A stretch of 46,264 nt of DNA from an uncultured Candidatus Saccharibacteria bacterium (lineage in GTDB: Bacteria; Patescibacteriota; WWE3; UBA101185; UBA10185): positions 1 to 46,264 of the forward strand of contig CAZSDQ010000003.1 of assembly GCA_964605725.1 (NCBI GenBank). The letters run 5' to 3'. The notes beneath the pieces were generated by a model. That model saw only the letters and a list, made by a program, of their open reading frames with translations. It was not told the DNA's origin and did no database searches. The position numbers were made by a program, and so were the translations under genes. Every line of letters begins with the position of its first letter. Position 1 is the first letter of the stretch. Below are positions 20,493-41,172 of the stretch, in pieces.

Positions 20493-23072
20493 ATGAATTC
20501 GTATCTTTATTTTAATGATGAGTCGGATTTACAGAAAAATGAAAAAATAGACTTTTCAGAAAACGGAAGAACTATTTTAGAAAAAAGATATTTAAGGAGA
20601 AATAAATTAGGTGAGATCGAAGAAACCCCCGAGGATATGTTTCAAAGAGTGGCAAACGCGATTGCCGAACCGGATGAGCCTTATAGAAATCCTGAGAAAA
20701 CCTCCATTGAGTTTTATAATCTAATTTCCACCAAAAAATTTTTTCCTAACTCTCCTACATTTACTGGAGCGGGAACTCCCATCGGACAATTGGCTGCTTG
20801 TTTTGTATTGCCGGTGGAAGACGACCTTGGAAAAAGCAGAGATGGAATTTTTCAGACATTAAGAAACGCAGCACTGATTCAGCAATCCGGTGGCGGAAAT
20901 GGCTTTTCATTTTCAAGATTAAGAGCCAAGGGGTCGAGAATTTCAACGAGCAACGGTTTGTCCACTGGGCCTGTGGGATTTATGGAGGCATATAACGGTG
21001 CTTTTGGTGTAATAGCTCAAGGCGGGGTAAGAAAAGGCGCAAATATGGGAATATTGAGAGTAGATCATCCGGATATAAGAGAGTTTATTACAGCTAAAAC
21101 TACTGAAGGAAAACTATCAAATTTTAATATATCCGTTGCTTTAACAGATAAATTTTTAGAAGCTGTTGAAAAAGATGAAACATATGAAATTTTTGATCCT
21201 CATACAAAAGAGATTGTGGAAACTCCGAAAGCCAGAGAGATATTTGATCTAATAGTTGAAAATGCATATAAAAACGGAGAACCCGGAGTTCTATTTATTG
21301 ATACGGCTAATAAAGATAACCCTGTTCCCAGCCTTTATGAATTGGAAGCTACAAATCCATGCGGGGAGCAGTGGCTTGGCCCTTATGAAAACTGTTGCTT
21401 GGGATCAATAAATTTATCTGAGCATATTACAAGTGATAATAAAATAGATTGGGAAGAATTAAGAAAAACTGTAATACTATCCACAAGGTTTTTAGATAAC
21501 GTAGTAAGTGCAAATAAATATGTTCCGGCAGTACCTCAATTAAAAGAGGCAGCCCATCAAAATAGAAGAATCGGTTTAGGAATTATGGGTTTGGCTGATT
21601 TATTTTATGTTTTGGGAGTAAGGTACGGTAGCGAGGAGGCACAGGATTTGGCAGGGCAGGTAATGGAATTTATTCGCTTCCACGCTATGAAAGCGTCTAT
21701 AGAGTTGGCAAAAGAGAGAGGGCCTTTCCCAGCTATCAAAGACAGTATCTTCAATCCATCTAATTTAGTTTGGACTCCTCCCACTCCACTAAAGAGTTTT
21801 TCGTTTGGCTGGGAAAGGCCCGCCATCGATTGGAGTGAAATAACGAACGGAATAAGACTGTATGGTTTAAGAAATGCTGCTGTTACAACGGTAGCCCCAA
21901 CAGGTACCATTTCTACTGTTGCTGGAGTAGAGGGTTATGGGTGTGAGCCAGTTTTTGCACTTGCTTATCTTAGAAATGTCTACCAAGCAGCAGGTGACTT
22001 GGAGAAAATGACTCTGACCTATGTCAGCCCGTCATTTCAAAAAGCGTTAGACGATATAGACATGAGTGATGTTAAGAGAAGAGAGATTATTGATGAGATA
22101 ATTCGAGTAGGTTCGTGTCAAAGTATAAAAGATTTACCCGATGATCTACGACATACATTTGTGGTATCAGGTGATATTACGCCAGAAGAACATATTTATA
22201 TGCAAGCTTCTTTGCAGAGATTTGTAGATAACTCAATTTCTAAGACATGTAATTTACCCCCAACAGCAGTTCCCGAGGATGTCGAAAAAGTATATATGAT
22301 GGGTTGGAAATTGGGTTGTAAAGGTTTAACAGTATATGTTTCGGGCAGTAGACAAGAAGAGGTATTAGTTACACAAGAAAAAAAAGAATCAACAACCGAA
22401 GGTGGTAAATCCGATGGTGAAAAACCGGTGGAAGAAGGAAAAATTGATGCCAATAAAGATGTATCAAAAGAAATTACAAATAATGAAGAAAAATTAATCG
22501 TAGAAAAACCCTCTGATGTTAAATTAGAACGTGAGTATAGATTAAATGGTTCAACTTACTGTGTAAAAACACCTCAAGGAAAAGCTTTTATTACAATAAA
22601 TAAGGATTCTAACGGCAGGCCTTTTGAGGTATTTATTAATGTTGGAAAGGCAGGTACTGATGTTTCTGCATTATCTGAAGGTTTAGGTAGATTAGTTAGT
22701 GGTTGGCTTAGAGTTCCCGGGGCATCAGAAAATGCTGTAACTGAGATTATTTCTCAATTAGGAGGTATCGGCGGTAGTAGATCGGTAGGTTTTGGAAAAA
22801 ATAAAGTTAGTTCCATTCCTGATGCTGTGGCAAAAGTATTGTCTGAAGAACTTGGGTATTCTTTGTTAAAAAATCAGTCAAATGGAAACGGGGATAATTT
22901 TATAAGTACAAAAATAAACACAGAATCCTTAAACATACGTAGTGATGCCAGCGGGGTAAGTTTAAATCCTGTAACCGGAAATATCGATGTGTGTCCTGAT
23001 TGCGGAAATTATTCCTTCATCAAAGAAGAGGGTTGTGCTAAATGCTACCTTTGTGGATACTCTGTTTGTTAG
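20493..23072 (+). CDS. nrdJ: Class II (adenosylcobalamin-dependent) ribonucleotide reductase
   Basis: TNPCGE catalytic loop, AACFVL, NCCLGSINL, APTGTIS, DNSISKTCN, GCKGLTVY; C-terminal TSCPD-like domain and CPDC..CAKCYLCGYSVC; no recognisable ATP cone. Confidence 0.95.
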   Translation: MNSYLYFNDESDLQKNEKIDFSENGRTILEKRYLRRNKLGEIEETPEDMFQRVANAIAEPDEPYRNPEKTSIEFYNLISTKKFFPNSPTFTGAGTPIGQLAACFVLPVEDDLGKSRDGIFQTLRNAALIQQSGGGNGFSFSRLRAKGSRISTSNGLSTGPVGFMEAYNGAFGVIAQGGVRKGANMGILRVDHPDIREFITAKTTEGKLSNFNISVALTDKFLEAVEKDETYEIFDPHTKEIVETPKAREIFDLIVENAYKNGEPGVLFIDTANKDNPVPSLYELEATNPCGEQWLGPYENCCLGSINLSEHITSDNKIDWEELRKTVILSTRFLDNVVSANKYVPAVPQLKEAAHQNRRIGLGIMGLADLFYVLGVRYGSEEAQDLAGQVMEFIRFHAMKASIELAKERGPFPAIKDSIFNPSNLVWTPPTPLKSFSFGWERPAIDWSEITNGIRLYGLRNAAVTTVAPTGTISTVAGVEGYGCEPVFALAYLRNVYQAAGDLEKMTLTYVSPSFQKALDDIDMSDVKRREIIDEIIRVGSCQSIKDLPDDLRHTFVVSGDITPEEHIYMQASLQRFVDNSISKTCNLPPTAVPEDVEKVYMMGWKLGCKGLTVYVSGSRQEEVLVTQEKKESTTEGGKSDGEKPVEEGKIDANKDVSKEITNNEEKLIVEKPSDVKLEREYRLNGSTYCVKTPQGKAFITINKDSNGRPFEVFINVGKAGTDVSALSEGLGRLVSGWLRVPGASENAVTEIISQLGGIGGSRSVGFGKNKVSSIPDAVAKVLSEELGYSLLKNQSNGNGDNFISTKINTESLNIRSDASGVSLNPVTGNIDVCPDCGNYSFIKEEGCAKCYLCGYSVC

Positions 23073-29613: not shown

Positions 29614-29690
29614 GGGCTCGTAGCTCAGTCGGTTAGAGCGTTGCATTCACATTGCAAAGGTCTCAGGTTCGAATCCTGACGGGCCCACCA
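29614..29690 (+). tRNA. tRNA-Val(CAC)
   Basis: GGGCTCG/CGGGCCC acceptor, GCTC/GAGC D stem, TTGCA/TGCAA stem with loop TT-CAC-AT, TCAGG-TTCGAAT-CCTGA T arm, A73 and encoded CCA. Confidence 0.96.
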
Positions 29691-29925
29691 ATTAACGATT
29701 TGAGCTAAAGAAAGGATTCGAATGCCGCAACCGCGACGGCGGTGAGGCGGGGTCGACTGGCGCATCAGCAGATGCGAACAGGTGACCGAATCCTGACGGG
29801 CCCACCAATTAACGATTTGAGCTAAAGAAAGGATTCGAATGCCGCAACCGCGACGGCGGTGAGGCGGGGTCGACTGGCGCATCAGCAGATGCGAACAGGT
29901 GACCGAATCCTGACGGGCCCACCAA
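29671..29925 (+). repeat. Tandem 117-bp repeat (about 2.2 copies): last 20 nt of tRNA-Val plus a 97-nt GC-rich structured spacer
   Basis: GAATCCTGACGGGCCCACCA at 29671, 29788 and 29905; the two 97-nt spacers are identical. Confidence 0.95.
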
Positions 29926-29949
29926 GAAATTAAGGAATATAATATTATT

Positions 29950-30402
29950 ATGATTTATATAAAATATTTTATATTTTGTTTATTGGTAGCGATACTGCTT
30001 GCCTTGTTTGAAATACAAACCGAAGGAAAGCACGGGTGGGCAAAAAAATTACCAACATGGAAAAAAAGCTTCAAGTTTTTAGACGCGCTCCCCGGCTTCC
30101 GTGGTCCTATTACAGGTTATCATATATATCTTTTCACAATGATTCTATTTCTGGTTCACATACCGTTTTTATTTATGAGGTGGGACTTAAGAACCGAGGT
30201 AATAATTTTGTCTGGTTACACTTTAATAGCGATGCTGGAAGATTTTTTGTGGTTTGTTTTTAACCCACATTTCGGATTAGAAAAGTTCAAAGAAAAACAC
30301 ATCTCTTGGCACGAGGATTGGATTGGACCAATGCCTGTGCAGTATATTTACGTTTTTGTAATTTGGGTAACCTTGTTTGTGCTTGGTTTTTTTATTATTT
30401 AA
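29950..30402 (+). CDS. Hypothetical polytopic membrane protein
   Basis: 150 aa with about four hydrophobic segments and polar islands EIQTEGKHGWA and EDFLWFVFNP. Confidence 0.7.
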   Translation: MIYIKYFIFCLLVAILLALFEIQTEGKHGWAKKLPTWKKSFKFLDALPGFRGPITGYHIYLFTMILFLVHIPFLFMRWDLRTEVIILSGYTLIAMLEDFLWFVFNPHFGLEKFKEKHISWHEDWIGPMPVQYIYVFVIWVTLFVLGFFII

Positions 30403-31636
30403 TAAAGTAATCGTAGAGCAAATTCCAGAGCTCGGTGTAACCCCCGTCATATCCGAGTGCCCACATTCCGACACCTCCAAGGTTGTATTCATTAACAATA
30501 TCGTATTTGTATTTCAATGATTTTGCATTTTCATAGTATGTGGTTCTAAGTTGCCCTGTTTCGGGACTTACATATGTAAAATAGGGTGATTTACCTTCCT
30601 CATTCCATTTTAAAACAGGATTTAGCTCAAGTATGGTTCCAAGTATGTCTTCATATGATTGAGATTGTGAATACCCGTTTTCATCTGACCCGTCTTTTCT
30701 TTTTGAGTATTGAGATTCATCTTCTACCAGCCAGTTATATCCATAATAAGGTACTCCAAGAATTATTTTATTAGGAGGTACTTTAGTCAAAAAGTCATTA
30801 ATTGTTTCTTTTATATCAATTCCCGGTCCTTCAATAGGTGATACCGGACCTATTTCTTCTGAAGTAGGTTGGTGGTAATCGTAAGCCATTATAAAAATTC
30901 CATCTGCCGCCCTGCTCAAGTTTTCCAAATCAGAGCTGACTCTGTTTTGTGTTGCGGAATCTCCGAAAGCCGAAACAACAACATAAGAATTTCCATAAAT
31001 TTTATCAAGTTCATCGTTTAAATATTTGGTAAACTCAGAAAACTTTTTATCAATACCTTCCTTTGTTCCTTCAGCGTGTTCAAAATTCAAATTAACATCC
31101 CTTATACCTTTTCTATCTAACTCTGTTCTTAAATTTTTTACTAAATTATCCCAACACTCCCTGCAGTTAAGAAACTCGTCATTAGAGGCATCGTCGTGAG
31201 CTATTATAGTAAGTGCAAACCTGACATTATTTTCCTTACAGTGAGTTATTAGTAAATTAAGCTCATCACTGTTTTTCCAATTATTGTAGGCGGGTTCGAT
31301 TATGGTTGTTCCATCTTCCCCGATAGTTGTAGTCATGAAATCTCCGTATTCATTTAAATATAAACCAAAATAAGCTATATCAGTTAGTTTATCTAGCTGA
31401 AGATACTCTATTTTGGTAATATTCCAGTAAGGCAGGTACCCGTAAATTAATTTCCTTGGCTTCTCTGATATTTTTGAAAAGCTTGAAAGTACGTTTATGT
31501 TACTTGAAAAAGGAGAGACAACTTTACTGCTTCTGATATTTTTTGGTGTACCTGTTTTTTTTACAGACATCGAGGCCGTAAATAACAAGGCTGAAATGAC
31601 AAATATCGAAATAATAAGAATTTTTTTTGTTTTCAT
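30395..31636 (-). CDS. Membrane-anchored glycoside hydrolase family 18 protein
   Basis: IYGYLPYW, DGIFIMAYDYH, KIILGVPYYGY, GGVGMWALGYD; catalytic stretch reads DVNLNFE. Confidence 0.88.
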   Translation of the reverse strand: MKTKKILIISIFVISALLFTASMSVKKTGTPKNIRSSKVVSPFSSNINVLSSFSKISEKPRKLIYGYLPYWNITKIEYLQLDKLTDIAYFGLYLNEYGDFMTTTIGEDGTTIIEPAYNNWKNSDELNLLITHCKENNVRFALTIIAHDDASNDEFLNCRECWDNLVKNLRTELDRKGIRDVNLNFEHAEGTKEGIDKKFSEFTKYLNDELDKIYGNSYVVVSAFGDSATQNRVSSDLENLSRAADGIFIMAYDYHQPTSEEIGPVSPIEGPGIDIKETINDFLTKVPPNKIILGVPYYGYNWLVEDESQYSKRKDGSDENGYSQSQSYEDILGTILELNPVLKWNEEGKSPYFTYVSPETGQLRTTYYENAKSLKYKYDIVNEYNLGGVGMWALGYDGGYTELWNLLYDYFIK

Positions 31637-31699
31637 TCGGGTTAATTTTACACGATAATTACACTAAGGTCTTTAATAAAATGTTAAAATTGCATAAAT

Positions 31700-32926
31700 A
31701 TGGATATATCTAAGACTAAGCGAAAATTTTGGTCTTTTTTCTTGTTGTCGCTAATACTATTTGGTGTATTGTCTTACCTTTTTTATAAAAACATTGTTAC
31801 ATCAAAGCAAAAGAAGTTAGAAAAAGACATTGAGAATATTGAAATGGATTTTGTTTTTAAGTCTGAAGACTGGTGGGAACAGGAAGAAGAGTGTACTGCT
31901 ATACAAAATATCGAATATTACTATTATTCTGGAGATGATCCCCTATGGAAAGAAAATAATAAGTTCGGGCTTTATATCTATGCTGAAGAAAAAGATTTTT
32001 TTGAGATTGCGCAAAATTTAATCAACTCAAAGGGAGGGGAGTGGGGTTACGTTTTAATACCCTACAATGTAAAAGATTACGATGAAGGTAAGTGGGGGAG
32101 GGTTTTTGATCAATTAATTAGTAAGAAATTAATTCCTGTAATTCAGTTATGGAATTTTGATAAAGATCATTATCAAAAAAATACCAAGAGAGCTGCAGAG
32201 TTTTTAAATTCCTTTATCTGGCCTATAAAGTATCGCTACATCAGTGTATATAATGAACCTAACGATGATAAGTTTTGGGTAGGTGATGCTGATCCGGAGG
32301 AATACGCCGAGGTTTTAGATTTTACTATTAAAACCTTTAAGGAAACTAACCCTGATTTTTATATGTTAAACGGAGCTTTAAACATTAGTTCTCCAACCGA
32401 CGGTCAAAATATTGACGCTTTTGAGTTTATGAGAAAAATGAATGAAAAAGTACCAGGAATATTTGATAAATTAGATGGTTGGGCTTCACATCCTTATCCT
32501 CAACCAAATTTTTCAGGCAATCCTTACGATAAGGGGAGGTGGAGCATCCGAGCTTACGAGGATGAGTTGAAATATTTAAAAGAAGATTTAGGAGTTAAAA
32601 AAGATCTACCGGTTTTTATAACCGAAACGGGGTGGGCACATGCCGAAGGTGATAATTATAACCCTTCCTTTCCGAAAGTTGAGACTGTGTCGGAATATTA
32701 TAAAATAGCTTTTGAGGAGGTATGGTTGAAAGATGATAGAGTGAGGGCAGTCATGCCGTTTACGATCAGATACGACCCTCCATTCGACCATTTTTCTTGG
32801 ATTAATAAAGACAAAGTTCCTTATCTTCAATACGAGGTTTTGAAAAAAATCGAAAAAGTGAAAGGAAAACCACCGGCTTTAATGACGGATAATGTAGATA
32901 TTTATAACTGCCCTGGTAGCAAATGA
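31700..32926 (+). CDS. Membrane-anchored clan GH-A glycoside hydrolase (GH5/GH39-like)
   Basis: N-terminal TM; VYNEPN (acid/base Glu), ASHPYP, VFITETGW (nucleophile Glu). Confidence 0.78.
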   Translation: MDISKTKRKFWSFFLLSLILFGVLSYLFYKNIVTSKQKKLEKDIENIEMDFVFKSEDWWEQEEECTAIQNIEYYYYSGDDPLWKENNKFGLYIYAEEKDFFEIAQNLINSKGGEWGYVLIPYNVKDYDEGKWGRVFDQLISKKLIPVIQLWNFDKDHYQKNTKRAAEFLNSFIWPIKYRYISVYNEPNDDKFWVGDADPEEYAEVLDFTIKTFKETNPDFYMLNGALNISSPTDGQNIDAFEFMRKMNEKVPGIFDKLDGWASHPYPQPNFSGNPYDKGRWSIRAYEDELKYLKEDLGVKKDLPVFITETGWAHAEGDNYNPSFPKVETVSEYYKIAFEEVWLKDDRVRAVMPFTIRYDPPFDHFSWINKDKVPYLQYEVLKKIEKVKGKPPALMTDNVDIYNCPGSK

Positions 32927-34212
32927 AACTTAATTTAAAATCAAACACAGCGACTAAAATTGCCAGCAATACTGTATATCAGATATTTGGAAAATTAATC
33001 AGCATGTCTATTACAATGCTTGCTGTGGTAATTATTACAAGGTCTTACGGCCGAGAAGGGTACGGAGCTTTTAGTTTGATGCAATCTTGGCCTGCTCTAT
33101 TTTTTGTGATTGTAGATTTTGGTATTAACGCCATTGCAGCAAGAGATATTACTGAAGATTGGTCTAAAGCGGCAAAATATTTAGGAAATATTTTAATAAT
33201 TCGTTTCTTATTTTCCCTGTTTTTAATATTAATAATCTCCTTTAGTATCAGTTTTTTTCCGTATACATCTGATCTAAGAAACGGTATTAGACTTGGACTC
33301 TTTTTACTTATCACTCAATCTTTATTCTCTACGACAAATATTTTTTTTCAGGTGAAATTAAGATATGATTACTCAACCATAGCTTATGTCGGAGGTTATA
33401 TTCTCATCCTTGTCTTAGTTTTAATTTCTTCATACTTCAAACTTCCTGTTACGTGGGCGAACTTTTCTTACGTAATAGGCGGGCTGCTAACCTTTATTTT
33501 AAGTATGAGTTATTTAGCTAAAATGGGCATAAAGCCGGATTTTTCTCTTGATAAAAAAATATGGAAATATCTCATTTTATCGGCACTTCCCATTGGGATA
33601 ATGTTTTTGTTCAGCCAAATGAGCTTTAAAGAAGATGCTCTGATGCTTTCTTTTTTGAAATTACCTAAATCTTACGGTCTGAATAATACCGAAAGTGTGG
33701 CTGTTTACGCCCTACCTTACAAGGTTTTTGAGGTTATGCTGGTAGTGCCTACATTTTTTATGAATTCTGTTTACCCGGTTTTAGTTGGCCATATGGTTGA
33801 GGGGGAACAGAAACTGAAAAAAACATTTGCACGGGTTATGTATTTTCTTACAGGATCGGGGTTGATAATAGGTTTGCTAGGTGTTGTTTTTTCATCCTTG
33901 TCTATGAAAATCCTAGGTGGCGAGGAATTTGTTCAATCTGTTGGTGTTTTAAATATACTTTCAGGAGGGTTGTTTATTTTTTACCTTACATCTCCAATAT
34001 CGTGGTTGATTGTTACCTTAGGATACCAAAAATATCTTCCATGGATTTATTTTGTTAGCTTTTCATTTAATATAATAATGAACTTCATATTCATTCCAAA
34101 ATACTCTTTCTATGGTGCTTCTTGGATTACAGTACTTTCAGAGTTTATAGTTCTTATACTTTTGATCATTTTTGCCCGAAAATCTTGGAGGTTGAAATAT
34201 GCTCGTAGCTAG
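32923..34212 (+). CDS. Wzx-type (MOP family) oligosaccharide flippase
   Basis: About 12 TM; IASNTVYQIFGK, YGREGYG.FS, DFGINAI, VAVYALPYK, IPKYSFYGASW; ATGA overlap with the upstream gene. Confidence 0.88.
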   Translation: MKLNLKSNTATKIASNTVYQIFGKLISMSITMLAVVIITRSYGREGYGAFSLMQSWPALFFVIVDFGINAIAARDITEDWSKAAKYLGNILIIRFLFSLFLILIISFSISFFPYTSDLRNGIRLGLFLLITQSLFSTTNIFFQVKLRYDYSTIAYVGGYILILVLVLISSYFKLPVTWANFSYVIGGLLTFILSMSYLAKMGIKPDFSLDKKIWKYLILSALPIGIMFLFSQMSFKEDALMLSFLKLPKSYGLNNTESVAVYALPYKVFEVMLVVPTFFMNSVYPVLVGHMVEGEQKLKKTFARVMYFLTGSGLIIGLLGVVFSSLSMKILGGEEFVQSVGVLNILSGGLFIFYLTSPISWLIVTLGYQKYLPWIYFVSFSFNIIMNFIFIPKYSFYGASWITVLSEFIVLILLIIFARKSWRLKYARS

Positions 34213-35419
34213 CTTTTATATAACCCTTTTCTTGTTAAGTTTGAATCAGTTATCGGTGTTATCAAAAAGCGGGGGAGTGAGTGTATATCTTTTTGACATT
34301 AGTGTTATTTTATTTTCATTATTCGGAACTTGTTATTTTCTAATATTGAAAAAGTCCTTTAAAATACCGAGATACGCTTATTTGTATGTTTTTTTTATAT
34401 TACCCGCAGGTATTTCCCTTTTACTATCTTCAATAGAGTTTTCTACAGATAAAATAATGACCGGATTTTTCTATTTATTACGATATTTTTCTTATCTGCT
34501 GTCGGGTGTAGTTGTATACAACATGGTGGACAAAAGATTATTAAGCAAAAAAAGGATTGAAGATGCCTTTATTTTATCCGGAATATTTATTGCCATTGCA
34601 GGGTTTATTCAACTGATACTTTTACCTGATTTTACTATTTTAGACCCGAGCCTTGGTTGGGATCCCCATAAAAATCGCTTAGCCTCAACCTTTTTTGACC
34701 CAAATTTTGTAGGAGCCTACTTTGTTATTTGCTTAGCTGTTTTGTTAGAAAGGATATTTCCCGATAAATGTACAAAGGAAAGTTCTAAAACTGGTTTTTA
34801 TACCTATTTTTGCTTGATTGTTATTTTAATTGGTTTGATACTCACATTTTCAAGAAGTGCTTGGGGTATGATGGGAATTGTTGTCTTAGCATACGGGGTT
34901 TTTAGATCTAAAGTATTGTTATTAGTAGCTTTTTTTACTGCCTTTATGGCTTATTTTGCCATTCCTAGGGTTCAAACAAGGATTTCAGGTACTACGGACC
35001 CCGCCGACTCTGCTTCCCTTAGAATCGTATCCTGGGGCAACACAGTTAGAATAATAAAGGATAACATTTGGACAGGTGTCGGTTTTAACACTTATAGGTA
35101 CGCACAAGAGAACTATGGGTTTTTAACCCCAGATCAAGATGAGATACACTCGGGGGCGGGGTCCGATTCCAGCCTCCTTTTGGTTTTTGCAACGACTGGG
35201 ATTTTTGGTTTTTTGATTTATTTTGTTGCGTTTTTATTTCCTATTATTGATTCATTGAAAAAAAGGTATTTAGGATGGCTCGTTATACTCGGCATCTTAA
35301 TAAGTCTTTTAATTGAATCTCAATTTATAAATAGTTTATTCTATCCTCAAATCATGTTTATCCTATTTCCTATACTTTTTATCTTTGATAATAGGCTACA
35401 GTACCTAAGTGTTTTATAA
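34199..35419 (+). CDS. O-antigen ligase/polymerase family protein (WaaL/Wzy/PglL-like)
   Basis: RLASTFFDPNFVG, LTFSRSAW, S..LRIVSW....W.GVG periplasmic-loop pattern; many TMs. Confidence 0.85.
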   Translation: MLVASFYITLFLLSLNQLSVLSKSGGVSVYLFDISVILFSLFGTCYFLILKKSFKIPRYAYLYVFFILPAGISLLLSSIEFSTDKIMTGFFYLLRYFSYLLSGVVVYNMVDKRLLSKKRIEDAFILSGIFIAIAGFIQLILLPDFTILDPSLGWDPHKNRLASTFFDPNFVGAYFVICLAVLLERIFPDKCTKESSKTGFYTYFCLIVILIGLILTFSRSAWGMMGIVVLAYGVFRSKVLLLVAFFTAFMAYFAIPRVQTRISGTTDPADSASLRIVSWGNTVRIIKDNIWTGVGFNTYRYAQENYGFLTPDQDEIHSGAGSDSSLLLVFATTGIFGFLIYFVAFLFPIIDSLKKRYLGWLVILGILISLLIESQFINSLFYPQIMFILFPILFIFDNRLQYLSVL

Positions 35420-35442
35420 TTTATCAAGCTTAATAATATAAT

Positions 35443-37536
35443 ATGAAACCAATTATTATAGAAATACTTAACCGGCTATTACTTTTATTTATACTTGTTG
35501 TGCCGAATATTTATCTTGTTTTAATACTTGCCAGAGTTAAGAAATGTTTAAAGTCGTTGCTTATTCCTGCATTTTGTATGTCTCTCTTGATATTAATATT
35601 TTTAAATAAACTTATATTTACAAGTCAGACTCTGTCAGCTCAAGATTTTAATAACATCCAGATTCCCTTCTTTCACTTTTTTAAGGAATCTATAGTTAAT
35701 TATTTTGAACCTCCTTTTTGGAACAGTAGATTCGGAGGTGGTTTTGATGCTTTTTCAAATCCCATATCAGCTTATTTTGCACCACTCAACTTTATATTTT
35801 TAATTTTTAAAAATGTTTATGAAGGTGCAGGTGTGTTTATATATTTTCAGTTACTTTTAACTTCGCTTTTTTCATTATTATTATTTAAAGAATTGAAATT
35901 TAATAATTACCTCTCATTTTTTGGAGCGATAGTTTTTACATTTAATGGTTTTGTTACTATGAGGTTATCGCCAGGAGTAGGAATTGAGTATTTATATTCA
36001 TATAAATGGATTCCATTGATAATGTTCTTCACCTTAATCTACTTAAGAGACCGTAAGTTACACGATTTGGCGTTGTTGTCTATTTCTCTGGCCTTTACTC
36101 TTGAAGGGAATTTAAATATTGTTATCTCGATATGGGCTTTTTGGTTATTGTTTTTGTTATTTATGTCTAAAAATTTTATAAGAGATATACGACACTACAT
36201 TTTAATTCCTTTATTATCGATGCTCCTATTTTCTATAAAAATATTACCCTTCTTAGATCTAATGAGAAACAGTACCGGTAGGATATCCGGAGTTGTAACT
36301 GGATGGAGATTGAATAAGATTGATATGATAGATTTTTTGTCTTATTTTCCTCCCATCAGACAGCTATTCGGTTCCGCTTTATTTACCCCGGGAATTATTG
36401 CTATAGCTTTTTTCTTCTTAAGTGTCGTGTACATTATCTTTTCAATATTTTCAAAAAGAAAAATAGAAAAAATATTTGTATTTTTGATATGTTCAATAAT
36501 TTTCGGATTTATAATAAATACGTATAATCCTTTATCAAATTTCTTATTTTCACTTCCTTTTTTTAATAGAATCACAATAGTACCTGCATTTATGGTTTTT
36601 ATTTTTACCCCGGTGTATATTCTGTCGGTTTATGGGTTAGAGATGTTTAAGAATTACGTGTTGAGCAGAAGATTTCTTAAAAATTTTAAGAATTTAGATA
36701 AATTTGGAATTGTATGCATTTCGCTACTGGTTTTTGCTGAAATATTAACAGGACCATCAACTTTTGGTAACAATACTTATAGCTTTAATTTTGCAAAAAT
36801 GGATAAAACCGAAGTAAATAAGGTACCTCCATATAATACTATTAAAAATCTAAGGCCCGGTGTATTTGCGTTTATAGATAGTTCAGATACATTTCTCTAT
36901 CCGCACGTAATCTCAAATATAGACCTGTATACTCTAAATAATTTTAAATATTTTTACAGCCCATCTTCAGAAAGAAATTTAATAAAAGAAGGTGTGTTTA
37001 AAGATATCGTTAATAGGTCAGATTATATTATCAGTACAAAACCCTTAAATGAGAAAGAAGTGTCTCTTATCTCAGAAGTAGGGACAGCTGATATTTTTAG
37101 CAACTTTAAATCTTATTCTATTTTAGATAAAAAATATGATTATTTAGATTTACAGGCAAAGAATGATTGGAATGAACTTATGTATATATATAGTGTTGAA
37201 ACAAGTGATCTTCAAAAACCATATTTTAAAAAATTGGATAATCACCCGACAAAATTAAGTATTTCAAAGGTTGATGATTACAAAGTTGATAATGAAATTA
37301 AAACGTCTGTTCGATATTCCAGATGGTGGCGGGATCTTAACGTAAATAAAGTAATACTGAGCGAAGATGAATTTGGATTTATGGTGATTAATGAGGTAGG
37401 GGAGAGAGATAAAGTTGATCTGTTCTATCTAAACCCTTACATTTATGCCGGGCTTTTCTTATCTTTGTTGAGCTCTATTGTGGTGTTTTATCTATGGAGG
37501 GGTAGCGCAGAAACTACTGTCCCTTCACGTACTTAA
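35443..37536 (+). CDS. Polytopic GT-C-like membrane glycosyltransferase (YfhO-like)
   Basis: PPFWNSRFGGGFDAFSNP loop after the first TMs, about 11-13 TMs and a soluble C-terminal domain. Confidence 0.6.
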   Translation: MKPIIIEILNRLLLLFILVVPNIYLVLILARVKKCLKSLLIPAFCMSLLILIFLNKLIFTSQTLSAQDFNNIQIPFFHFFKESIVNYFEPPFWNSRFGGGFDAFSNPISAYFAPLNFIFLIFKNVYEGAGVFIYFQLLLTSLFSLLLFKELKFNNYLSFFGAIVFTFNGFVTMRLSPGVGIEYLYSYKWIPLIMFFTLIYLRDRKLHDLALLSISLAFTLEGNLNIVISIWAFWLLFLLFMSKNFIRDIRHYILIPLLSMLLFSIKILPFLDLMRNSTGRISGVVTGWRLNKIDMIDFLSYFPPIRQLFGSALFTPGIIAIAFFFLSVVYIIFSIFSKRKIEKIFVFLICSIIFGFIINTYNPLSNFLFSLPFFNRITIVPAFMVFIFTPVYILSVYGLEMFKNYVLSRRFLKNFKNLDKFGIVCISLLVFAEILTGPSTFGNNTYSFNFAKMDKTEVNKVPPYNTIKNLRPGVFAFIDSSDTFLYPHVISNIDLYTLNNFKYFYSPSSERNLIKEGVFKDIVNRSDYIISTKPLNEKEVSLISEVGTADIFSNFKSYSILDKKYDYLDLQAKNDWNELMYIYSVETSDLQKPYFKKLDNHPTKLSISKVDDYKVDNEIKTSVRYSRWWRDLNVNKVILSEDEFGFMVINEVGERDKVDLFYLNPYIYAGLFLSLLSSIVVFYLWRGSAETTVPSRT

Positions 37537-38245
37537 CCTTTAATTCTTTAGTCGATTTATTTCCTGCAATGTCGACTACTTCGATTTTAATTTCTACATC
37601 TCCTTCGGATGCGGATATAAAGTAACTGAAGGATAGGTCTGACTTTTGAATTGCAGTTTTTTCGTTTATTGTAATTGTAGCTTTTTCGTCAATTTTTCCT
37701 TCTATCTCTATTCTCTTGTCTAAGTTTTTGACTGTATCCCCGTCCTTTGGTTTTTCTATTGTTATTTTTGGAGCGTCCTTATCATAGTTAATAATTAAAA
37801 ATTCTGAACTTTCGCTTTCATTTCCTTTATCATCGTAAGATTTAGCAAAGATTGTGTTTGTTCCAACATTTAGGTTTATATCGCTGAAGGTAAATATTCC
37901 GTCATTCCCGGCCGTTGTGGAACCTTTTTCAGGACCGTTGACAAATATTTTTATGAAAGATCCCGGCAATGCTCTACCGGTAAGAGTTACTGACTCTTTA
38001 TTTATAGCTTTAGGTGCATCTATGAATACCGGGGGTATTGGTTTAGGAGTTGGGACATACCCTGGATCATTTCTATATTTTGAAAAGTATCCAAATAAAG
38101 AACCTACCTGTGGTGCAAATAAAAAAAGACTTAAGATTCCTATAATAACGATACTCCATATTCCCAACATCCTTTTTCTAAGTCTGTCTCTTAGTTCTTT
38201 TTCTGATATTCTTTTCTGCTGAATCCCTGAACTTGCTGCTGTCAT
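37514..38245 (-). CDS. Single-TM protein with two bacterial Ig-like domains
   Basis: TM then VTLTGRALPGS.IKIFVNG...G.FTF...L..G.NTI and DKDAPKITIEKPKDG...DIAGN. Confidence 0.7.
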   Translation of the reverse strand: MTAASSGIQQKRISEKELRDRLRKRMLGIWSIVIIGILSLFLFAPQVGSLFGYFSKYRNDPGYVPTPKPIPPVFIDAPKAINKESVTLTGRALPGSFIKIFVNGPEKGSTTAGNDGIFTFSDINLNVGTNTIFAKSYDDKGNESESSEFLIINYDKDAPKITIEKPKDGDTVKNLDKRIEIEGKIDEKATITINEKTAIQKSDLSFSYFISASEGDVEIKIEVVDIAGNKSTKELKVKYVKGQ

Positions 38246-38256
38246 AAAAATATAAT

Positions 38257-38278
38257 ATCACAATAATGTGATTGTGAT
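38257..38278. promoter_or_regulatory. Inverted repeat between galU and the Ig-domain gene (terminator or operator)
   Basis: ATCACAAT-N6-ATTGTGAT, overlapping the extended -10 of the downstream gene. Confidence 0.35.
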
Positions 38279-38281
38279 TTT

Positions 38282-39160
38282 TTAAATAATTTCCTTTTTA
38301 ATAAATTCTGTTAAGTCTTTTTTAAGATCATCTCTTTTCATCGCAAATTTAAGTGTAGTCTGAATGAATCTTAAAGGATCCCCGGTAGTTAACCACTCCC
38401 CGTCGATTGGTTGGGCAATAACTTTGTCTCCTCTTTGAGCAATGTTGTTTATTATGTCTGTTAGCCAGAGTTCGTTTCCTTTTCCAAGCTGTCTTTTCTC
38501 TGCTTCCATTACAACGTCGTAAGAAAGTACAAATCTTCCAAATTGTGCCATGCGCGAGGGAGCTTTTTCCATAGCTGGTTTTTCAACAATACTTTCAATT
38601 TCGTATTTATAAGGAACATTGGTTTTATAAGTTACAACTCCGTATTTTGAGACTTCCCATAACGGTACTTCTTGAACTGCAAGTATTGCCTTGGGATTTT
38701 GTTCTTTATAAACATCTATTAACTGTTGAGTCACCGGTTTATCCGCCAAGGTCATATCATCTCCGAACATGTATACAAAACTTTCATCTTTGTTTAAATA
38801 TTTTTTTGCGGCGAGGATAGGGGAGCCATTTCCGTAGGGAAGTGATTTATCTTGTGGTTTAAACCTAATTTTTGCCATTTTTGAAATGCTTTTTATTGTT
38901 TCTGCCAGTTCTGTTTTTCCTGTGTTTTTTAAAGTATCTTCAAGTTTTTTATTTCTTGAAAAGTAGTCATTGAAAGTTTTAAAACCCGGTCGGGTAATTA
39001 TGATTATTTCTTTAATTCCGGAATCGACAAGTTCTTTAACCAAATAATGGATAATGGGAGCATCTATGATTGGCAGCATTTCTTTAGGAACACTTTTTGT
39101 TGCTGGGAGAAATCTAGTACCTAGTCCTGCTGCTGCGATTATAGCTTTTTTAATTTTCAT
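38282..39160 (-). CDS. galU: UTP--glucose-1-phosphate uridylyltransferase
   Basis: KAIIAAAGLGTRFLPATKSVPKEMLP, GNGSPI, FGDD, IVEKP, GELWLTD. Confidence 0.9.
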   Translation of the reverse strand: MKIKKAIIAAAGLGTRFLPATKSVPKEMLPIIDAPIIHYLVKELVDSGIKEIIIITRPGFKTFNDYFSRNKKLEDTLKNTGKTELAETIKSISKMAKIRFKPQDKSLPYGNGSPILAAKKYLNKDESFVYMFGDDMTLADKPVTQQLIDVYKEQNPKAILAVQEVPLWEVSKYGVVTYKTNVPYKYEIESIVEKPAMEKAPSRMAQFGRFVLSYDVVMEAEKRQLGKGNELWLTDIINNIAQRGDKVIAQPIDGEWLTTGDPLRFIQTTLKFAMKRDDLKKDLTEFIKKEII

Positions 39161-39216
39161 AGGATTATTTTATCAGATTTGGGTGTAAAGTTTTGGGAAA
39201 AATAAATTCGAGGTTT

Positions 39217-39257
39217 AAAAAATGAGGGGTAGTTAAAAAAAGCTTTTAAGCTACCCC
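39217..39257 (-). terminator. Intrinsic terminator
   Basis: Minus strand GGGGTAG...CTACCCC stem followed by TCATTTTTT, just after the 39266 stop. Confidence 0.55.
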
Positions 39258-39265
39258 GTGAGTGA

Positions 39266-39445
39266 TTAGAAAATTGCAATTAACAATACAACTAACACGA
39301 GCAGAATTCCGAAAATAAGAGCATAGACTAACATCGTGCTTTCCCCTGGAAGAGAATCCGGCTTGATCTTCCGTTCTTTTTCCTCTAACTCATAATCAAT
39401 TTTTGCGTATTCTTCGTCAGAACAATTACGAGCTGTGTTTAACAT
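39266..39445 (-). CDS. 59-aa small protein with a C-terminal TM helix
   Basis: AAGGAG Shine-Dalgarno 8 nt before ATG 39445 (MLNTARNC...), so this internal start is preferred to the track's 39529. Confidence 0.6.
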   Translation of the reverse strand: MLNTARNCSDEEYAKIDYELEEKERKIKPDSLPGESTMLVYALIFGILLVLVVLLIAIF

Positions 39446-39547
39446 TTTTCTCTCTCCTTTTGAATAATGGTTTTTAGCAATTATATCAAAAAAGAAGGCA
39501 ATCAGACTTGCGAAATTAGAAAATTTCATCTGACTGCCTTTGATTGG

Positions 39548-39754
39548 TTACCTTGGGTAGCCCTTTTTTGGGGTTGCCATTGGTTTCGGTTTATTGGCTT
39601 CAATTTCTTTTTTTTGAACAAACCCAATAAAAGCGCAAAAACCGATTCCGATTAATGGCCACCACCACCAACTGGTCTCAGTGGCGGACATAAAAATTAC
39701 TACGCAAACCAAAATACCAATCTCCCATCTTTGCAATCTTTCATTTTTTTTCAT
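39548..39754 (-). CDS. 68-aa two-TM small membrane protein
   Basis: GAGGAG Shine-Dalgarno before the ATG; two hydrophobic segments separated by WWWWP. Confidence 0.65.
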   Translation of the reverse strand: MKKNERLQRWEIGILVCVVIFMSATETSWWWWPLIGIGFCAFIGFVQKKEIEANKPKPMATPKKGYPR

Positions 39755-39877
39755 CTCTTCTCCTCTTTGAGATTAGTTTTTATTTTATTGTTATCATTAT
39801 ACCCTATAGTCATATATTTGTCCATAGGAATTAAGTTGAATATTTATAAGGGTTTGGGAATTGATATTTAGCTTTAT

Positions 39878-39919
39878 TGGAGCCGAAGGTGGGAATTGGG
39901 AACTCAGCCTAACGTTTAC
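39878..39919 (-). pseudogene. 3' half (42 nt) of a split tRNA-Thr, with a damaged T arm
   Basis: GTAA-ACGTT-AGGCT-GAGTTCCCAATTCCCAC-CTTCGGC-T-CCA; complementary to the 5' half at 40317-40349. Confidence 0.85.
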
Positions 39920-40149
39920 TATTTTGTTTCTAAAATAGATATTCTTTTATCGTGATTATCTATTTTTTCTTTGTTCATCTTATACATATCTCCGTAAAAA
40001 CCTATTGTATTTTCTAAAGAAATTAGTGATGCTGTGTGATTGTCTAGTTTTGAATAAACCTCGTTAAAATTTTCATTTGTTTCATTTCTGAAATCTCTGA
40101 ATTCTTTTTGAAGATTAATTATCAAACCTGATAAATTTTCATTAGGCAT
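39919..40149 (-). CDS. 76-aa coiled-coil hypothetical protein inside the split tRNA
   Basis: Open frame with heptad-like pattern; TAATAT 6 nt before the ATG; its TAG stop overlaps the first base of the tRNA 3' half. Confidence 0.7.
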   Translation of the reverse strand: MPNENLSGLIINLQKEFRDFRNETNENFNEVYSKLDNHTASLISLENTIGFYGDMYKMNKEKIDNHDKRISILETK

Positions 40150-40218
40150 GGTTGGATATTAGTTTATTTATTTTATAAAAACAAGATGGTATTTCTATTG
40201 ATAATAGAGGTAATGTGT

Positions 40219-40293
40219 TGGAGCCGGTGGTCAGAATCGAACTGACAACCTAACGCTTACGATGCGCTTGCTCTACCATTGAGCTACACCGGC
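40219..40293 (-). tRNA. tRNA-Thr(CGT)
   Basis: GCCGGTG/CACCGGC acceptor, GCTC/GAGC, AGCGC/GCGTT with loop AT-CGT-AA, GTCAG-TTCGATT-CTGAC, U73 and CCA. Confidence 0.95.
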
Positions 40294-40316
40294 AAAAGAT
40301 ACTGGCCGCAGCGTCT

Positions 40317-40349
40317 GATACGCTTGCTCTACCATTTAGCCACTTCGGC
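40317..40349 (-). pseudogene. 5' half (33 nt) of a split tRNA-Thr
   Basis: GCCGAAG-TG-GCTA-AATGGTA-GAGC-A-AGCGT-ATC; ends at anticodon position 34. Confidence 0.85.
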
Positions 40350-40416
40350 GTATAAAAATAAACTTTCGTTTAATATCTTACCTTGGCGATCAAAATAATT
40401 CTAAATTTATTAATAA

Positions 40417-40475
40417 GCTCAATCGCAAGGTTCTCGAGCGAAGCGAGATGGTTCTTCCCATTGAGCCACTATGGC
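40417..40475 (-). other. tRNA 5'-end fragment extended into a GC-rich hairpin element
   Basis: GCCATAG-TG-GCTCAATGG, then TCTCG-CTTCGCT-CGAGA, closed by ATTGAGC pairing with GCTCAAT. Confidence 0.7.
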
Positions 40476-40515
40476 AGATAAAATTTCGACTATTAAAACC
40501 TAATATATCTTTATT

Positions 40516-41172
40516 TTAATACTCAACCTCGTAATTATTACGTATTTTACTATATTCGCAAAACTTACACGAAGGGTTCATTTCAGGAACAGGTCCTTCC
40601 AACAGATCATCAACTTCTTTAATAAACTTGAAAAAAGTATCTTCGTCTGTAGGAATTTCCATCCACTTTGGAGGGAAATTAACCCTGGAAGTTTCATCCA
40701 TAAAATCAACATTTTCAGGATAGAAAATAAGTAGCCCCATTTTTGTAATCTTTATAGGTGTACTCGAAACAGGGTTTTCAAGTGCAAATTTATATGAAAA
40801 CAGCTGGGTCTTGTATTTTTCAATTTTCTCTTCTGATGGCAGTGATATTTTAAGGTCGACGAGAGTATAGGTACCATCAGGATTTTTACATAAAAGGTCG
40901 TATTTACCTTTTATATAGCAAGACGTATTTGGAATAGTTTTTGATTCCACAAATATTTCTTGATTAACCACAGTACAATCAGGTAAATCCACAGAGAGCG
41001 TTATTAAATTTTTCCCTATTAATTTTGTTTGAACCATTGAATTTAAAGTTGTAAAAACACCCGGGAATGGGGTAGATGGTCTTGGGATATTTTCTTTTAC
41101 CTTCAAGTAAAAACAGCGTTTACATTCTTCGTATAAATACGCAAAATCAGAAGGTGATAATTTATAATTCAT
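40516..41172 (-). CDS. PD-(D/E)XK nuclease superfamily protein (Cas4/RecB-like, stand-alone)
   Basis: LSPS...ECKRC, KGKYDLL, LVDLK, C-terminal CKFC. Confidence 0.8.
   Translation of the reverse strand: MNYKLSPSDFAYLYEECKRCFYLKVKENIPRPSTPFPGVFTTLNSMVQTKLIGKNLITLSVDLPDCTVVNQEIFVESKTIPNTSCYIKGKYDLLCKNPDGTYTLVDLKISLPSEEKIEKYKTQLFSYKFALENPVSSTPIKITKMGLLIFYPENVDFMDETSRVNFPPKWMEIPTDEDTFFKFIKEVDDLLEGPVPEMNPSCKFCEYSKIRNNYEVEY

Follow-up and report, generated by a model that had tools for sequence, protein, structure and literature searches.

Two families of small, gene-less, structured elements anchored at tRNA genes of Patescibacteria

Elements at the tRNA-Val and tRNA-Thr genes

[quoted passage not shown] It encodes LexA, UvrABC, the dcw cluster up to FtsZ, ribonucleotide reductase, IleRS, L21/L27 and a signal peptidase whose homologues carry the names Patescibacteria or WWE3, and the organism is present in wastewater and anaerobic-digester metagenomes. 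Next to its tRNA-Val and tRNA-Thr genes lie two short modules that belong to two gene-less families defined by structure. Members of both families are anchored at a tRNA loop, carry target-derived flanks in sense (X) and antisense (X') orientation on either side of a core, and vary in copy number and occupancy. The 3' type is represented at tRNA-Val and the 5' type at tRNA-Thr. Both are widespread in Patescibacteria and appear to be undescribed: the open-access literature on tRNA-linked non-coding RNAs, mobile elements and introns of Patescibacteria yielded no description of either and no family that covers them, and the core sequence, as a text string, was absent from the searchable literature.

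At the tRNA-Val locus two identical 117-nt units lie in register (29670-29786 and 29787-29903), and the 22-nt 3' end of the tRNA, CGAATCCTGACGGGCCCACCAA, is present three times, the third copy at 29904-29925 (Table 1). Each unit holds the segment AGGATTCGAA (29713-29722 and 29830-29839), which perfectly complements TTCGAATCCT of the tRNA gene (29668-29677) and corresponds to the complement of tRNA positions 54-63. An initial annotation of this DNA had described the elements at both tRNAs as a copy of a tRNA end, an internal hairpin and an antisense copy of a tRNA arm, and this composition was confirmed at both loci. It had also correctly placed the 3' end with the T arm at tRNA-Val, where X copies the gene from T-loop C56 to its end and X' is the antisense of that copy. 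The antisense length of 7 nt that it gave for both elements applies to ATTGAGC at tRNA-Thr; the segment at tRNA-Val is longer, with 10 nt. The AGGATTCGAA segment and the downstream tRNA-end copy form an 8-bp closing helix, and the unit is predicted to fold into a three-way junction closed by AGGAUUCG:CGAAUCCU (z = -3.8; 0 of 200 shuffles as good). The GC content of the core is 67%, as compared to 34% for the window.

The unit-to-unit junction is spanned by contigs of three independent DNA runs, at 29764-29808 in two of them and at 29779-29816 in the third. This core-repeat-spacer junction occurs in the tandem only, which excludes that assembly created the duplication. One unit is present in the 99%-identical strains L001 and L042 and also in a metatranscriptome contig; L042 is the GTDB contig of "Patescibacteria group bacterium RA.bin45" and its Val locus is otherwise essentially identical to that of the window. 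A single diverged unit is found in L002 and L011. In L002, whose signal peptidase is 86% identical, the unit occupies the same site, its stems are altered by compensatory changes and its tRNA-end copy matches the tRNA variant of L002 itself. The site is without element in L005, L009, L014, L015 and L016, and the signal peptidase of L014 is identical to that of the element-bearing L013.

The metatranscriptome contig was obtained from activated sludge (294 nt, depth 2.3). It corresponds to window 29639-30049 and contains the 3' part of tRNA-Val, one unit and the first 100 nt of the next ORF (open reading frame); the 2 kb of genes flanking the locus are uncovered in the same metatranscriptome. 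At this low depth the contig hints at read-through transcription of the Val element and at a one-unit allele in the sample. The ORF that follows the units (29950-30402) encodes a 150-aa protein without Pfam match that is conserved in relatives lacking the element.

The module at tRNA-Thr, which we call fragment A, runs from 40475 to 40417 on the minus strand and consists of GCCATAGTGGCTCAATGGG, a 33-nt hairpin and ATTGAGC. Read on the plus strand it has the order X'-core-X with X extending to the gene end, which is the Val architecture on the complementary strand. The mirror-image family proposed in the initial annotation was thus largely right, each module being part of a multi-copy family anchored in a tRNA arm. 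By itself, fragment A does not fold significantly better than shuffled sequences (z = -1.8; 11 of 200 as good), and we consider the fragment real because the module recurs, in 25 distinct variants and at three tRNA isotypes. It is about 94% conserved in relatives and missing in strain L065. The duplicated 5' fragment with the D arm that had been noticed at this locus is fragment A, but there are two 5' fragments and not one. Fragment B has the acceptor strand GCCGAAG, matches tRNA nt 1-33 at 85% identity and then continues with ACGCT, which closes an anticodon-like stem.

In the relatives L067 (2658-3010) and L068, which were compared with window 40150-40515, the 5' half of an older tRNA-Thr allele (acceptor GCCAGAG, to the anticodon loop) is positioned 22 nt upstream of the intact gene, and a matching 3' half, AGCGTTAGGTT...CTCTGGCTCCA, 13 nt downstream of the intact tRNA-Thr(CGT). 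Because this 3' half, which matches fragment B, adjoins the gene downstream, the intact tRNA-Thr appears to be nested in the older allele, of which the window retains just the 5' half as fragment B. The old 3' half of L065 (2815-2935) contains an extra T-loop insertion of about 67 nt (GTGGG/CCCGTCATTCC...GAGGAAGCGCAGTGAGCAAAGCGAACGAGC...CTCTT/ATTCCCAC), a different core with no close match among the fetched loci. Directly upstream of the Thr fragments lies a gene for a PD-(D/E)XK (Cas4/RecB-like) nuclease (40516-41172, minus strand). It is syntenic at the Thr locus in L065-L068 and belongs to a very widespread CPR family with 914 homologues at E <= 1e-15; no evidence tying it to the elements was found.

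The span 29713-40475 given in the initial annotation is not one feature. Between the two elements lie 10 kb of ordinary genes for the cell envelope and polysaccharides, and these are syntenic in relatives whether or not the element is present. A genomic island between the two tRNAs was rejected for the same reason, the gene order (GH18, polysaccharide genes) being kept irrespective of the Val element.

Table 1. Positions of the tRNA genes and element parts in the window.
Feature	Position	Strand	Evidence
Intact tRNA-Val(CAC) with encoded CCA; target/anchor of the 3'-type element	29614-29690	+	ARAGORN; Rfam tRNA model, 72.6 bits
Unit 1 spacer ATTAACGATTTGAGCTAAAGAA; partly conserved in the orthologous L002 element	29691-29712	+	Sequence; comparison with L002
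Unit 1 X' AGGATTCGAA, 5' strand of closing helix P1	29713-29722	+	10-nt inverted repeat, 100% complementary
Unit 1 conserved 61-nt core, CGCA to GTGAC	29726-29786	+	Covariance-model match 29720-29789, 86.7 bits, E = 5e-15; covariation
Unit 1 X (C56 to CCA plus A), 3' strand of P1	29787-29808	+	Direct repeat, 100% identity
Unit 2, exact duplicate of unit 1	29809-29925	+	117-nt direct repeat, 100% identity; covariance-model match 29837-29906, 86.7 bits
Unit 2 spacer	29809-29829	+	
Unit 2 X'	29830-29839	+	
Unit 2 core	29843-29903	+	
Unit 2 X	29904-29925	+	
Intact tRNA-Thr(CGT); anchor of the 5'-type element and pseudo-tRNA fragments	40219-40293	-	ARAGORN; Rfam tRNA model, 67.1 bits
Fragment B, 5' half of older tRNA-Thr allele, directly upstream of the intact gene	40294-40349	-	Direct repeat; sequence
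AT-rich spacer separating fragment B from the 5'-type element; conserved to about 94% in L067/L068	40350-40416	-	Relatives
5'-type X' ATTGAGC, complement of D-stem/loop nt 10-16 GCTCAAT	40417-40423	-	Inverted repeat
5'-type 33-nt core hairpin AAGAACCATCTCGCTTCGCTCGAGAACCTTGCG	40424-40456	-	Same core in 30 metagenome loci
5'-type X, tRNA nt 1-19 GCCATAGTGGCTCAATGGG, ending at D-loop GG (G18/G19)	40457-40475	-	Direct repeat

Distribution, structure and variation of the two families

The positions common to the window and L002 cores gave a pattern of 23 bases, CGCANNCGCGACGGCGNNGAGNCGGGGT, which was searched in the GTDB species representatives. It was found at 48 loci in about 38 assemblies, essentially all of them Patescibacteria. 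The carriers include WWE3, Paceibacterota, Saccharibacteria-labelled, Kaiser-, Nomura-, Taylor-, Adler- and Zambryskibacteria genomes. Their assemblies stem from many different projects and assemblers, and a complete Kaiserbacteria chromosome and a complete, curated genome of WWE3 are among them. One match, in a high-GC Gemmatimonadaceae contig, is likely due to chance. The 2.2 kb contig CAZFCX010000124.1 (L031), labelled Bdellovibrionales, carries a typical CPR 3'-type element with a tRNA-Ser-like repeat, CGAATCCCCCTCCCTCCGCCA, and is probably mis-binned CPR DNA. The 3'-type core had zero matches in IMG/VR viral contigs, phage records and plasmid records, and on these grounds an origin from phages or plasmids was rejected.

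The core family was defined by a covariance model, R1, with 62 copies in the 48 pattern loci, divergent ones with long P2 or P3 tips included, and 8 more in independently fetched loci. The length from CGCA to GTGAC is fixed at 61 nt across 44 distinct copies. In hairpin P2 the loop reads GACG and an internal loop, GNA/GA, is conserved. Next come GG and hairpin P3, which has the loop AGCA, a bulge of 2 nt and an invariant G.U wobble. Support for the two helices is strong. Of the cells, 95.9% were paired versus 78% in column shuffles and 31-46% with slid partners, and 179 cells showed double changes. Read in a fixed register, the closing helix P1 has double changes at all seven pairs across the family. 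The part of the core that never changes reads S-C-G-N-A-G ... G-A-G-S-C-GGGGU-CGCG ... CGUGAC. The 3' type can be recognized by S-C-G-N-A-G, P2, G-A-G-S-C-GGGGU, P3 and GUGAC joined to tRNA C56, and the Val units of the window have this signature. The P3 wobble is present in 41 of the 44 copies and exists only on the tRNA-sense strand. Since the G.U pairs, including this one, fit only there, selection acted on the structure of that strand.

At the gathering score of Rfam 15 only the two tRNAs passed. At E <= 10 the Val region gave the tRNA, its antisense artefact and a 19-bit permuted transfer-messenger RNA (tmRNA) match over the T arm, CCA and X', and the Thr region gave nothing credible. With filters off the Thr region scored at most 1.1 bits against R1. 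The internal sequences of the two elements are therefore unrelated, as had been noted initially, and the Thr module was rejected as a member of the Val-core family. A 12-15-nt GAGCGAAGCGAG motif that the Thr module has in common with the P2 tips of divergent 3' cores, in opposite orientation, was treated as weak. The initial annotation could not assign a named element, and indeed neither element maps to a known family.

In the 3' type the order is X'-core-X, and pairing of X' with X closes the three-way junction. The core nearly always lies 20-100 nt 3' of a same-strand tRNA, whatever the isotype of the latter; such a tRNA is found within approximately 100 nt upstream in about 35 of 49 copies. 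In about half of the copies (ca. 24) the sequence after GTGAC starts exactly at tRNA C56 and copies 15-29 nt of the neighbouring tRNA, and X sometimes extends 8-20 nt into the tRNA trailer. X' complements X and tracks the T-loop variant of each tRNA: T loops with CGAAT, CGAGT, CGATT, CAATT and CAAAT are matched by ATTCG, ACTCG, AATCG, AATTG and ATTTG, respectively. Its length ranges from 7 to 19 or more nt, and an additional hairpin can interrupt it. In three cases (L059, L038, L034) the tRNA has the G of a G.U pair where X' has an A. Because of these three A residues X' is best explained as a templated Watson-Crick copy of X and not as a leftover 5' strand of a tRNA; its extension into trailer antisense in some copies leads to the same conclusion. 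Survival of the 5' strand of the T stem and acceptor as X' is disfavoured on both counts. Against the grain of this rejection, L017, L027 and L040 keep nearly the whole 5' part of a tRNA upstream of the core. In these loci the core interrupts the T loop of an almost full-length tRNA copy, the intact gene lies 73-79 nt downstream, and the interrupted copy in L017 has a truncated acceptor 3' strand. An intact, uninterrupted tRNA gene is kept beside the element in both types. One 3'-type copy, in L032, is located in the D-arm region of a tRNA-Asn 5' fragment. Heterogeneous tandems occur in L033 and L044; in L033 two different cores follow each other, with the same repeat after each.

In some copies X' runs on as a perfect palindrome through the tRNA trailer. 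Such long palindromes, which link the tRNA 3' end and trailer to X', are found at L018:4520-4620, L044:4089-4136, L049:3027-3120 and L034:3218-3283. Their tips look like intrinsic terminators, with a GC stem between A and T runs. The extra hairpins within X' carry YGGGR loops, and GCGAAGC or GCGAAAGC, which form unusually stable DNA mini-hairpins, are frequent in hairpin tips.

Further 3'-type elements have other or strongly diverged cores. These comprise a long core in L073, L084 and L090, a third core in L080, L088 and L033 (2315-2416), and the elements at L028:400-580 and L032:7540-7700. Many of the diverged cores have GGGAUGAGAAU as their start and a hairpin tip of the sequence GAGCGAAGCGA(A/G)G, and they end in GUUAC followed by C56 or in GUGGGC followed by G57. 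The superfamily is therefore wider than model R1. At the 3' site of tRNA-Gln the core is of the R1 type or family-1-like in L070 and L072, of the long divergent kind in L073, L084 and L090, and of the third kind in L080 and L088, and L081 and L085 have none; the elements at this site all end at the junction with CGAATCCCTG... or GAATCCC. In the organism of the window, the copies at tRNA-Val, tRNA-Ala and tRNA-Leu have a common P3, GCATCAGCAGATGCGAACAGG, and differ in spacers and in X and X'. Such a clade-specific P3 common to different tRNAs, combined with differing X and X', indicates that the core alone was moved or converted.

For the 5' type, metagenomes were scanned with ACCNTCTCGCTTNGCTCGAGAACC. 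The core was found at 30 loci in 25 distinct variants, upstream of tRNA-Gln, tRNA-Asn and tRNA-Thr. A single layout was found in 24 of the 25 variants. It starts with 25-85 nt of copied upstream flank plus tRNA nt 1-18/19 up to the D-loop GG; GAAGAACCRTCTCGCTTCGCTCGAGAACCTTGCG and an antisense copy of D-stem nt 10-16 come next, and the native flank leads on to the intact tRNA. Fragment A of the window fits this layout with tRNA nt 1-19, GAAGAACCRTCTCGCTTCGCTCGAGAACCTTGCG and the antisense of D-stem nt 10-16. X' is matched to the target, with ATTAGAC at tRNA-Gln (GTCTAAT) and ATTGAGC at tRNA-Asn and tRNA-Thr (GCTCAAT). Two tandem units were present in 10 of the 30 loci, and tRNA-Gln carries one or two. 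The end point at the D-loop GG also occurs at tRNA-Gln, tRNA-Asn, tRNA-Ala and tRNA-Ser loci. A related 5' architecture with a GCGAAGC-tipped hairpin was found at tRNA-Ala and tRNA-Ile in the organism of the window and at tRNA-Ser elsewhere, and in each case at most 8 of 200 shuffles were as good. The two families co-occur in the same genomes. In the remaining one of the 25 variants, at L091:861-930, the 5'-type core, AAGAACCGTCTCGCTTCGCTCGAGAACCTT, stands without any tRNA fragment directly after the apparent end of an infA-like gene, and the core hairpin may double as a general hairpin of terminator or REP (repetitive extragenic palindromic) type or have originated from one.

The initial annotation had proposed to compare the flanks of tRNAs with shuffled controls and to tabulate the neighbouring genes. 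The architecture exceeded the controls. Among 96 tRNAs in the fetched loci, 30 had their 3' end duplicated over 12 nt or more within 300 nt downstream and 10 had a copy of the 5' end upstream, compared with 1 and 0 in the wrong-side controls and 0 in shuffled flanks. No protein family recurred beside the elements in the 48 loci; the clusters obtained in the neighbour-gene enrichment consisted only of spurious ORFs overlapping the GC-rich core. The initial annotation had further suggested that one class of trans-acting enzyme may recognise both elements, or that the structures may hide tRNA fragments from processing enzymes or be decoys for integrases and nucleases that target tRNAs; a candidate enzyme gene was not found beside the elements.

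Mobility, host function and other explanations

The genomes of CPR bacteria are about 1 Mb in size, streamlined and repeat-poor, and the presence of multi-copy structured elements on essential tRNA genes is surprising in this setting. The modules represent two families of small (ca. 60-150 nt), ORF-less and structure-defined elements that are specific to Patescibacteria, and we consider it somewhat probable that these are mobile but non-autonomous and home to the elbow loops of tRNAs. The elements would spread between the tRNA genes of one genome and acquire X and X' from each new target. Loss, tandem gain and reinsertion would result from recombination between the directly repeated copies of X. 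A more detailed mechanism, which we regard as doubtful and which is modelled on known folded recombination sites, would be that a folded single strand with an X':X helix imitating the target-arm duplex is recombined into the loop of the arm by a trans-encoded recombinase or nuclease. This mechanism is preferred because the architecture occurs on either DNA strand, in sense for the T arm and complementary for the D arm. The long perfect palindromes would in this case be secondary X:X' hairpin extensions formed by template switching.

The junctions of the elements are fixed, at C56 in the 3' type and at G19 in the 5' type. In the established tRNA structure these two nucleotides pair with each other at the elbow; we record the coincidence as an observation and not as an explanation. 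Tentatively, the elements might form a previously unrecognised class of mobile element, with a gene-less structure that homes to elbow loops at C56/G19 and copies its target in sense and antisense for its own closing helix. The highly conserved three-way-junction core might then be a new ribozyme, or it might act as recognition module of a recombinase restricted to CPR bacteria.

Several results weigh against mobility. Genes for a recombinase, transposase, reverse transcriptase or HUH nuclease were found neither in the 46-kb window nor adjoining any element copy, and free, circular or excision-junction forms were not observed. The tRNA-Val copies of the window and L002 diverge about as much as the neighbouring intergenic DNA, which fits vertical descent. 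The repeats have a length of 8-38 nt in the 3' type and about 40-100 nt in the 5' type, unlike a duplication produced by a fixed staggered cut. Repeat-mediated loss together with concerted evolution could mimic mobility. Since the loci were obtained through the elements themselves, the frequencies of occupancy in the fetched loci are biased and are not population estimates. Other properties are equally typical of an RNA that benefits the host. Comparison of class-level CPR lineages shows about half of the core to be invariant, the invariant G.U wobble is restricted to the sense strand, and in L044, L037 and L051 an element follows most tRNAs.

The explanation suggested by the latter properties is that the elements are host-functional RNAs of the tRNA transcription unit, a 3' trailer in the 3' type and a leader or attenuator in the 5' type, whose copies evolve in concert and are occasionally lost by repeat recombination. 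We judge this unlikely on balance, but it is the alternative that deserves most weight. The core would be transcribed with the tRNA, and X':X closure would give a stable RNA with a genuine tRNA 3' end that serves processing, termination or stability, or acts as a spare or mimic. In agreement with this, the core lies downstream of the tRNA and in the same orientation, conservation across CPR classes extends to its length and is accompanied by compensatory change, and the G.U pairs fit only the tRNA-sense strand. The metatranscriptome contig with tRNA, one unit and next ORF points weakly in the same direction, given its depth of 2.3, and a long X' as in L034 would yield an X':X minihelix of acceptor and T stem with an NCCA tail. 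However, the element is dispensable, being missing at the same tRNA in strains with 86%-identical signal peptidase and in L014, and the same tRNA-Gln site holds unrelated cores or none. Exact tandem copies also argue against a host RNA. A terminator-like hairpin with a T run separates the tRNA from X' in L018, L044 and L027, so co-transcription would be limited. Furthermore, a long X' would compete with folding of the tRNA itself, and the 5' type duplicates promoter-side flank that a leader does not need.

Three other explanations were considered. On the first, the elements would be scars of integrase-mediated integration and excision of islands or phages (attL/attR remnants), together with decaying tandem tRNA duplicates, and the hairpins would be incidental. 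This is improbable, although direct repeats that start in a tRNA loop and extend past the gene end, next to an intact tRNA, are what tRNA-targeting integrative elements are said to produce, and although plain pseudo-tRNA halves do occur at the Thr locus, with the 3' half of fragment B downstream in L067/L068. Random scars would not give a fixed 61-nt core with 179 compensatory changes in about 38 assemblies, nor the same 33-nt hairpin at three isotypes; remnants of integrase and cargo were not found in the window or in the neighbourhoods of the 48 loci, viral contigs, phage records and plasmid records gave no match to the core, and the antisense segment would be left unexplained. Still less probable is a guide-RNA scaffold resembling an omega RNA, CRISPR RNA or bridge RNA, in which the copy of the tRNA 3' end or the antisense segment would direct a nuclease or recombinase encoded in trans to tRNA genes or to targets complementary to tRNA. 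A conserved scaffold followed from a fixed junction by a flank-derived segment of 15-29 nt, a second, target-complementary segment 5' of the scaffold, and multiple copies with different putative guides are compatible with such a function. On the other hand, genes of the TnpB, IscB, Cas or IS110 type neither adjoin the elements in the window nor recur in the 48 loci, a scaffold match in Rfam is absent, the guide would match the adjoining intact tRNA gene of the cell itself, and X is partly sequestered in P1 in many copies. Chance similarity or an assembly artefact, finally, has a negligible probability. The hairpin at tRNA-Thr taken alone has the modest z-score reported above, and a 7-nt inverted repeat is weak evidence by itself. 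This is outweighed by the Val tandem junction seen in three independent runs, by the many projects and assemblers that yielded the elements, complete WWE3 and Kaiserbacteria genomes included, by the covariation of the 3'-type core, by the 30 metagenome loci with the 5'-type core, and by controls of 0-1 versus 30 and 10.

If the elements are mobile, as we favour, they represent a new way of targeting tRNA genes, on either strand and without genes of their own, which points to a trans-acting enzyme or a catalytic RNA. If they are host-functional, the 61-nt core is among the most conserved CPR-specific non-coding RNAs and implies a new step of tRNA biogenesis in a third of bacterial diversity. 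Either way, two sequence/structure models become available for annotating "pseudo-tRNA" clutter, for explaining contig breaks at tRNAs and for tracking strain variation.

Comparison with known systems

tRNA-targeting integrative elements reportedly leave a direct repeat that runs from a tRNA loop to the gene end and keep the tRNA intact, and integrase-less derivatives are said to exist as cis-mobilizable elements (CIMEs). The present elements resemble both in the direct repeat from the T loop to the gene end, the intact tRNA, tandem accretion and presence/absence among strains. The repeat is seen at tRNA-Val, where the 22-nt sequence from C56 to CCA plus A occurs three times, and likewise in about 24 copies of the family. 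An integrase and kilobase cargo are absent: the units are ORF-less and 117 nt long, the window has no recombinase and no neighbour recurs in the 48 loci. Unlike integrative elements, the present ones have a size of 60-150 nt instead of kilobases and possess a covarying core, a target-antisense segment and repeats of variable length. They also include a mirror family at the 5' end and D loop, a use of the tRNA that would be very unusual for integrases.

Integron attC sites and the attP(+) hairpin of CTX phage are recombination sites that consist of a folded single strand. They are the closest mechanistic analogue that we can offer, since there too structure is kept more than sequence, an inverted-repeat duplex imitates the target, arrays are ORF-less and the process is strand-specific. 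The elements described here differ from attC in the tRNA-loop target and in the three-way-junction core with about half of its positions invariant. The consensus boxes of attC (GTTRRRY/RYYYAAC) are missing from the units, with no GTTRRRY in the 117 nt, and the window contains neither an IntI-like gene nor attI.

REP sequences, their paired form REPIN, and miniature inverted-repeat transposable elements (MITEs) are likewise small, GC-rich, hairpin-forming, gene-less, multi-copy and intergenic, and the 5' core was found once away from a tRNA (L091). They differ from the present elements, which are strictly anchored at C56 or G19, have sense and antisense flanks copied from the target, and are accompanied by no RAYT or DDE gene that we could see. 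REP and REPIN sequences are dispersed palindromes with a conserved GTAG head, in genomes with a RAYT gene; the present elements, rather than being randomly dispersed, adjoin tRNAs. A MITE was rejected as there are no terminal inverted repeats of its own, X' and X being target-derived and different for each tRNA, and no target duplication of fixed length.

Disrupted tRNA genes of archaea include non-canonical introns, cases of intron transposition and split tRNAs (PMC4033280, PMC4390854). Points of similarity are short, related inserts at non-canonical positions, including the T and D loops, GC-rich complementary segments flanking tRNA pieces, and, in L017, L027 and L040, the interruption of a near-complete tRNA copy in the T loop. 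The differences are the bacterial host, the truncated and non-functional interrupted copy and a far more conserved insert, and we identified no bulge-helix-bulge logic. An archaeal-type tRNA intron was rejected, since an intact uninterrupted tRNA always stands beside the element and the interrupted copy is truncated (L017).

With the omega RNAs of TnpB and IscB and the bridge or seek RNAs of IS110 the elements have in common a structured scaffold that is linked, at a constant position, to a stretch identical with the target or complementary to it. They differ in that an associated effector gene, insertion sequence (IS) ends and an Rfam match are absent, and they are far shorter than an IS. A derivative of IS200/IS605 or a TnpB omega RNA was rejected because tnpA or tnpB is not nearby and long target repeats are present. 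P3 (about 34 nt) presumably resembles domain 5 of class C group II introns: it has CGC near the base with the invariant G.U wobble, a 2-nt bulge in the 3' strand and a tetraloop. The helix lengths are different and the other intron domains are absent, and the Rfam group II models gave no match at E <= 10.

Other candidates were rejected as well. For tmRNA or permuted tmRNA, ARAGORN gave no prediction and the Rfam permuted-tmRNA score of 19 bits compares to a gathering score of 47. The repeats of a type III toxin-antitoxin system would be followed immediately by the gene for an endoribonuclease toxin, but the next ORF (29950-30402) has the properties given above. The elements were not considered regulators of a downstream ORF, as the association is with the tRNA and not with any downstream gene family. 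An origin from reverse-transcribed mature tRNA or tRNA fragments does not agree with X, which often includes trailer or upstream flank beyond the mature ends. The window core can be read as ATG CCG CAA CCG CGA CGG CGG TGA (7 codons plus stop) and the L002 core as 18 codons; a coding function was rejected because the differences between the two are compensatory stem changes and do not preserve codons.

Elsewhere in the window, at 20493-23072 on the plus strand, the large subunit of ribonucleotide reductase has a TSCPD domain at its C terminus. A cobalamin adenosyltransferase gene comes next, an ordinary class II ribonucleotide reductase context.

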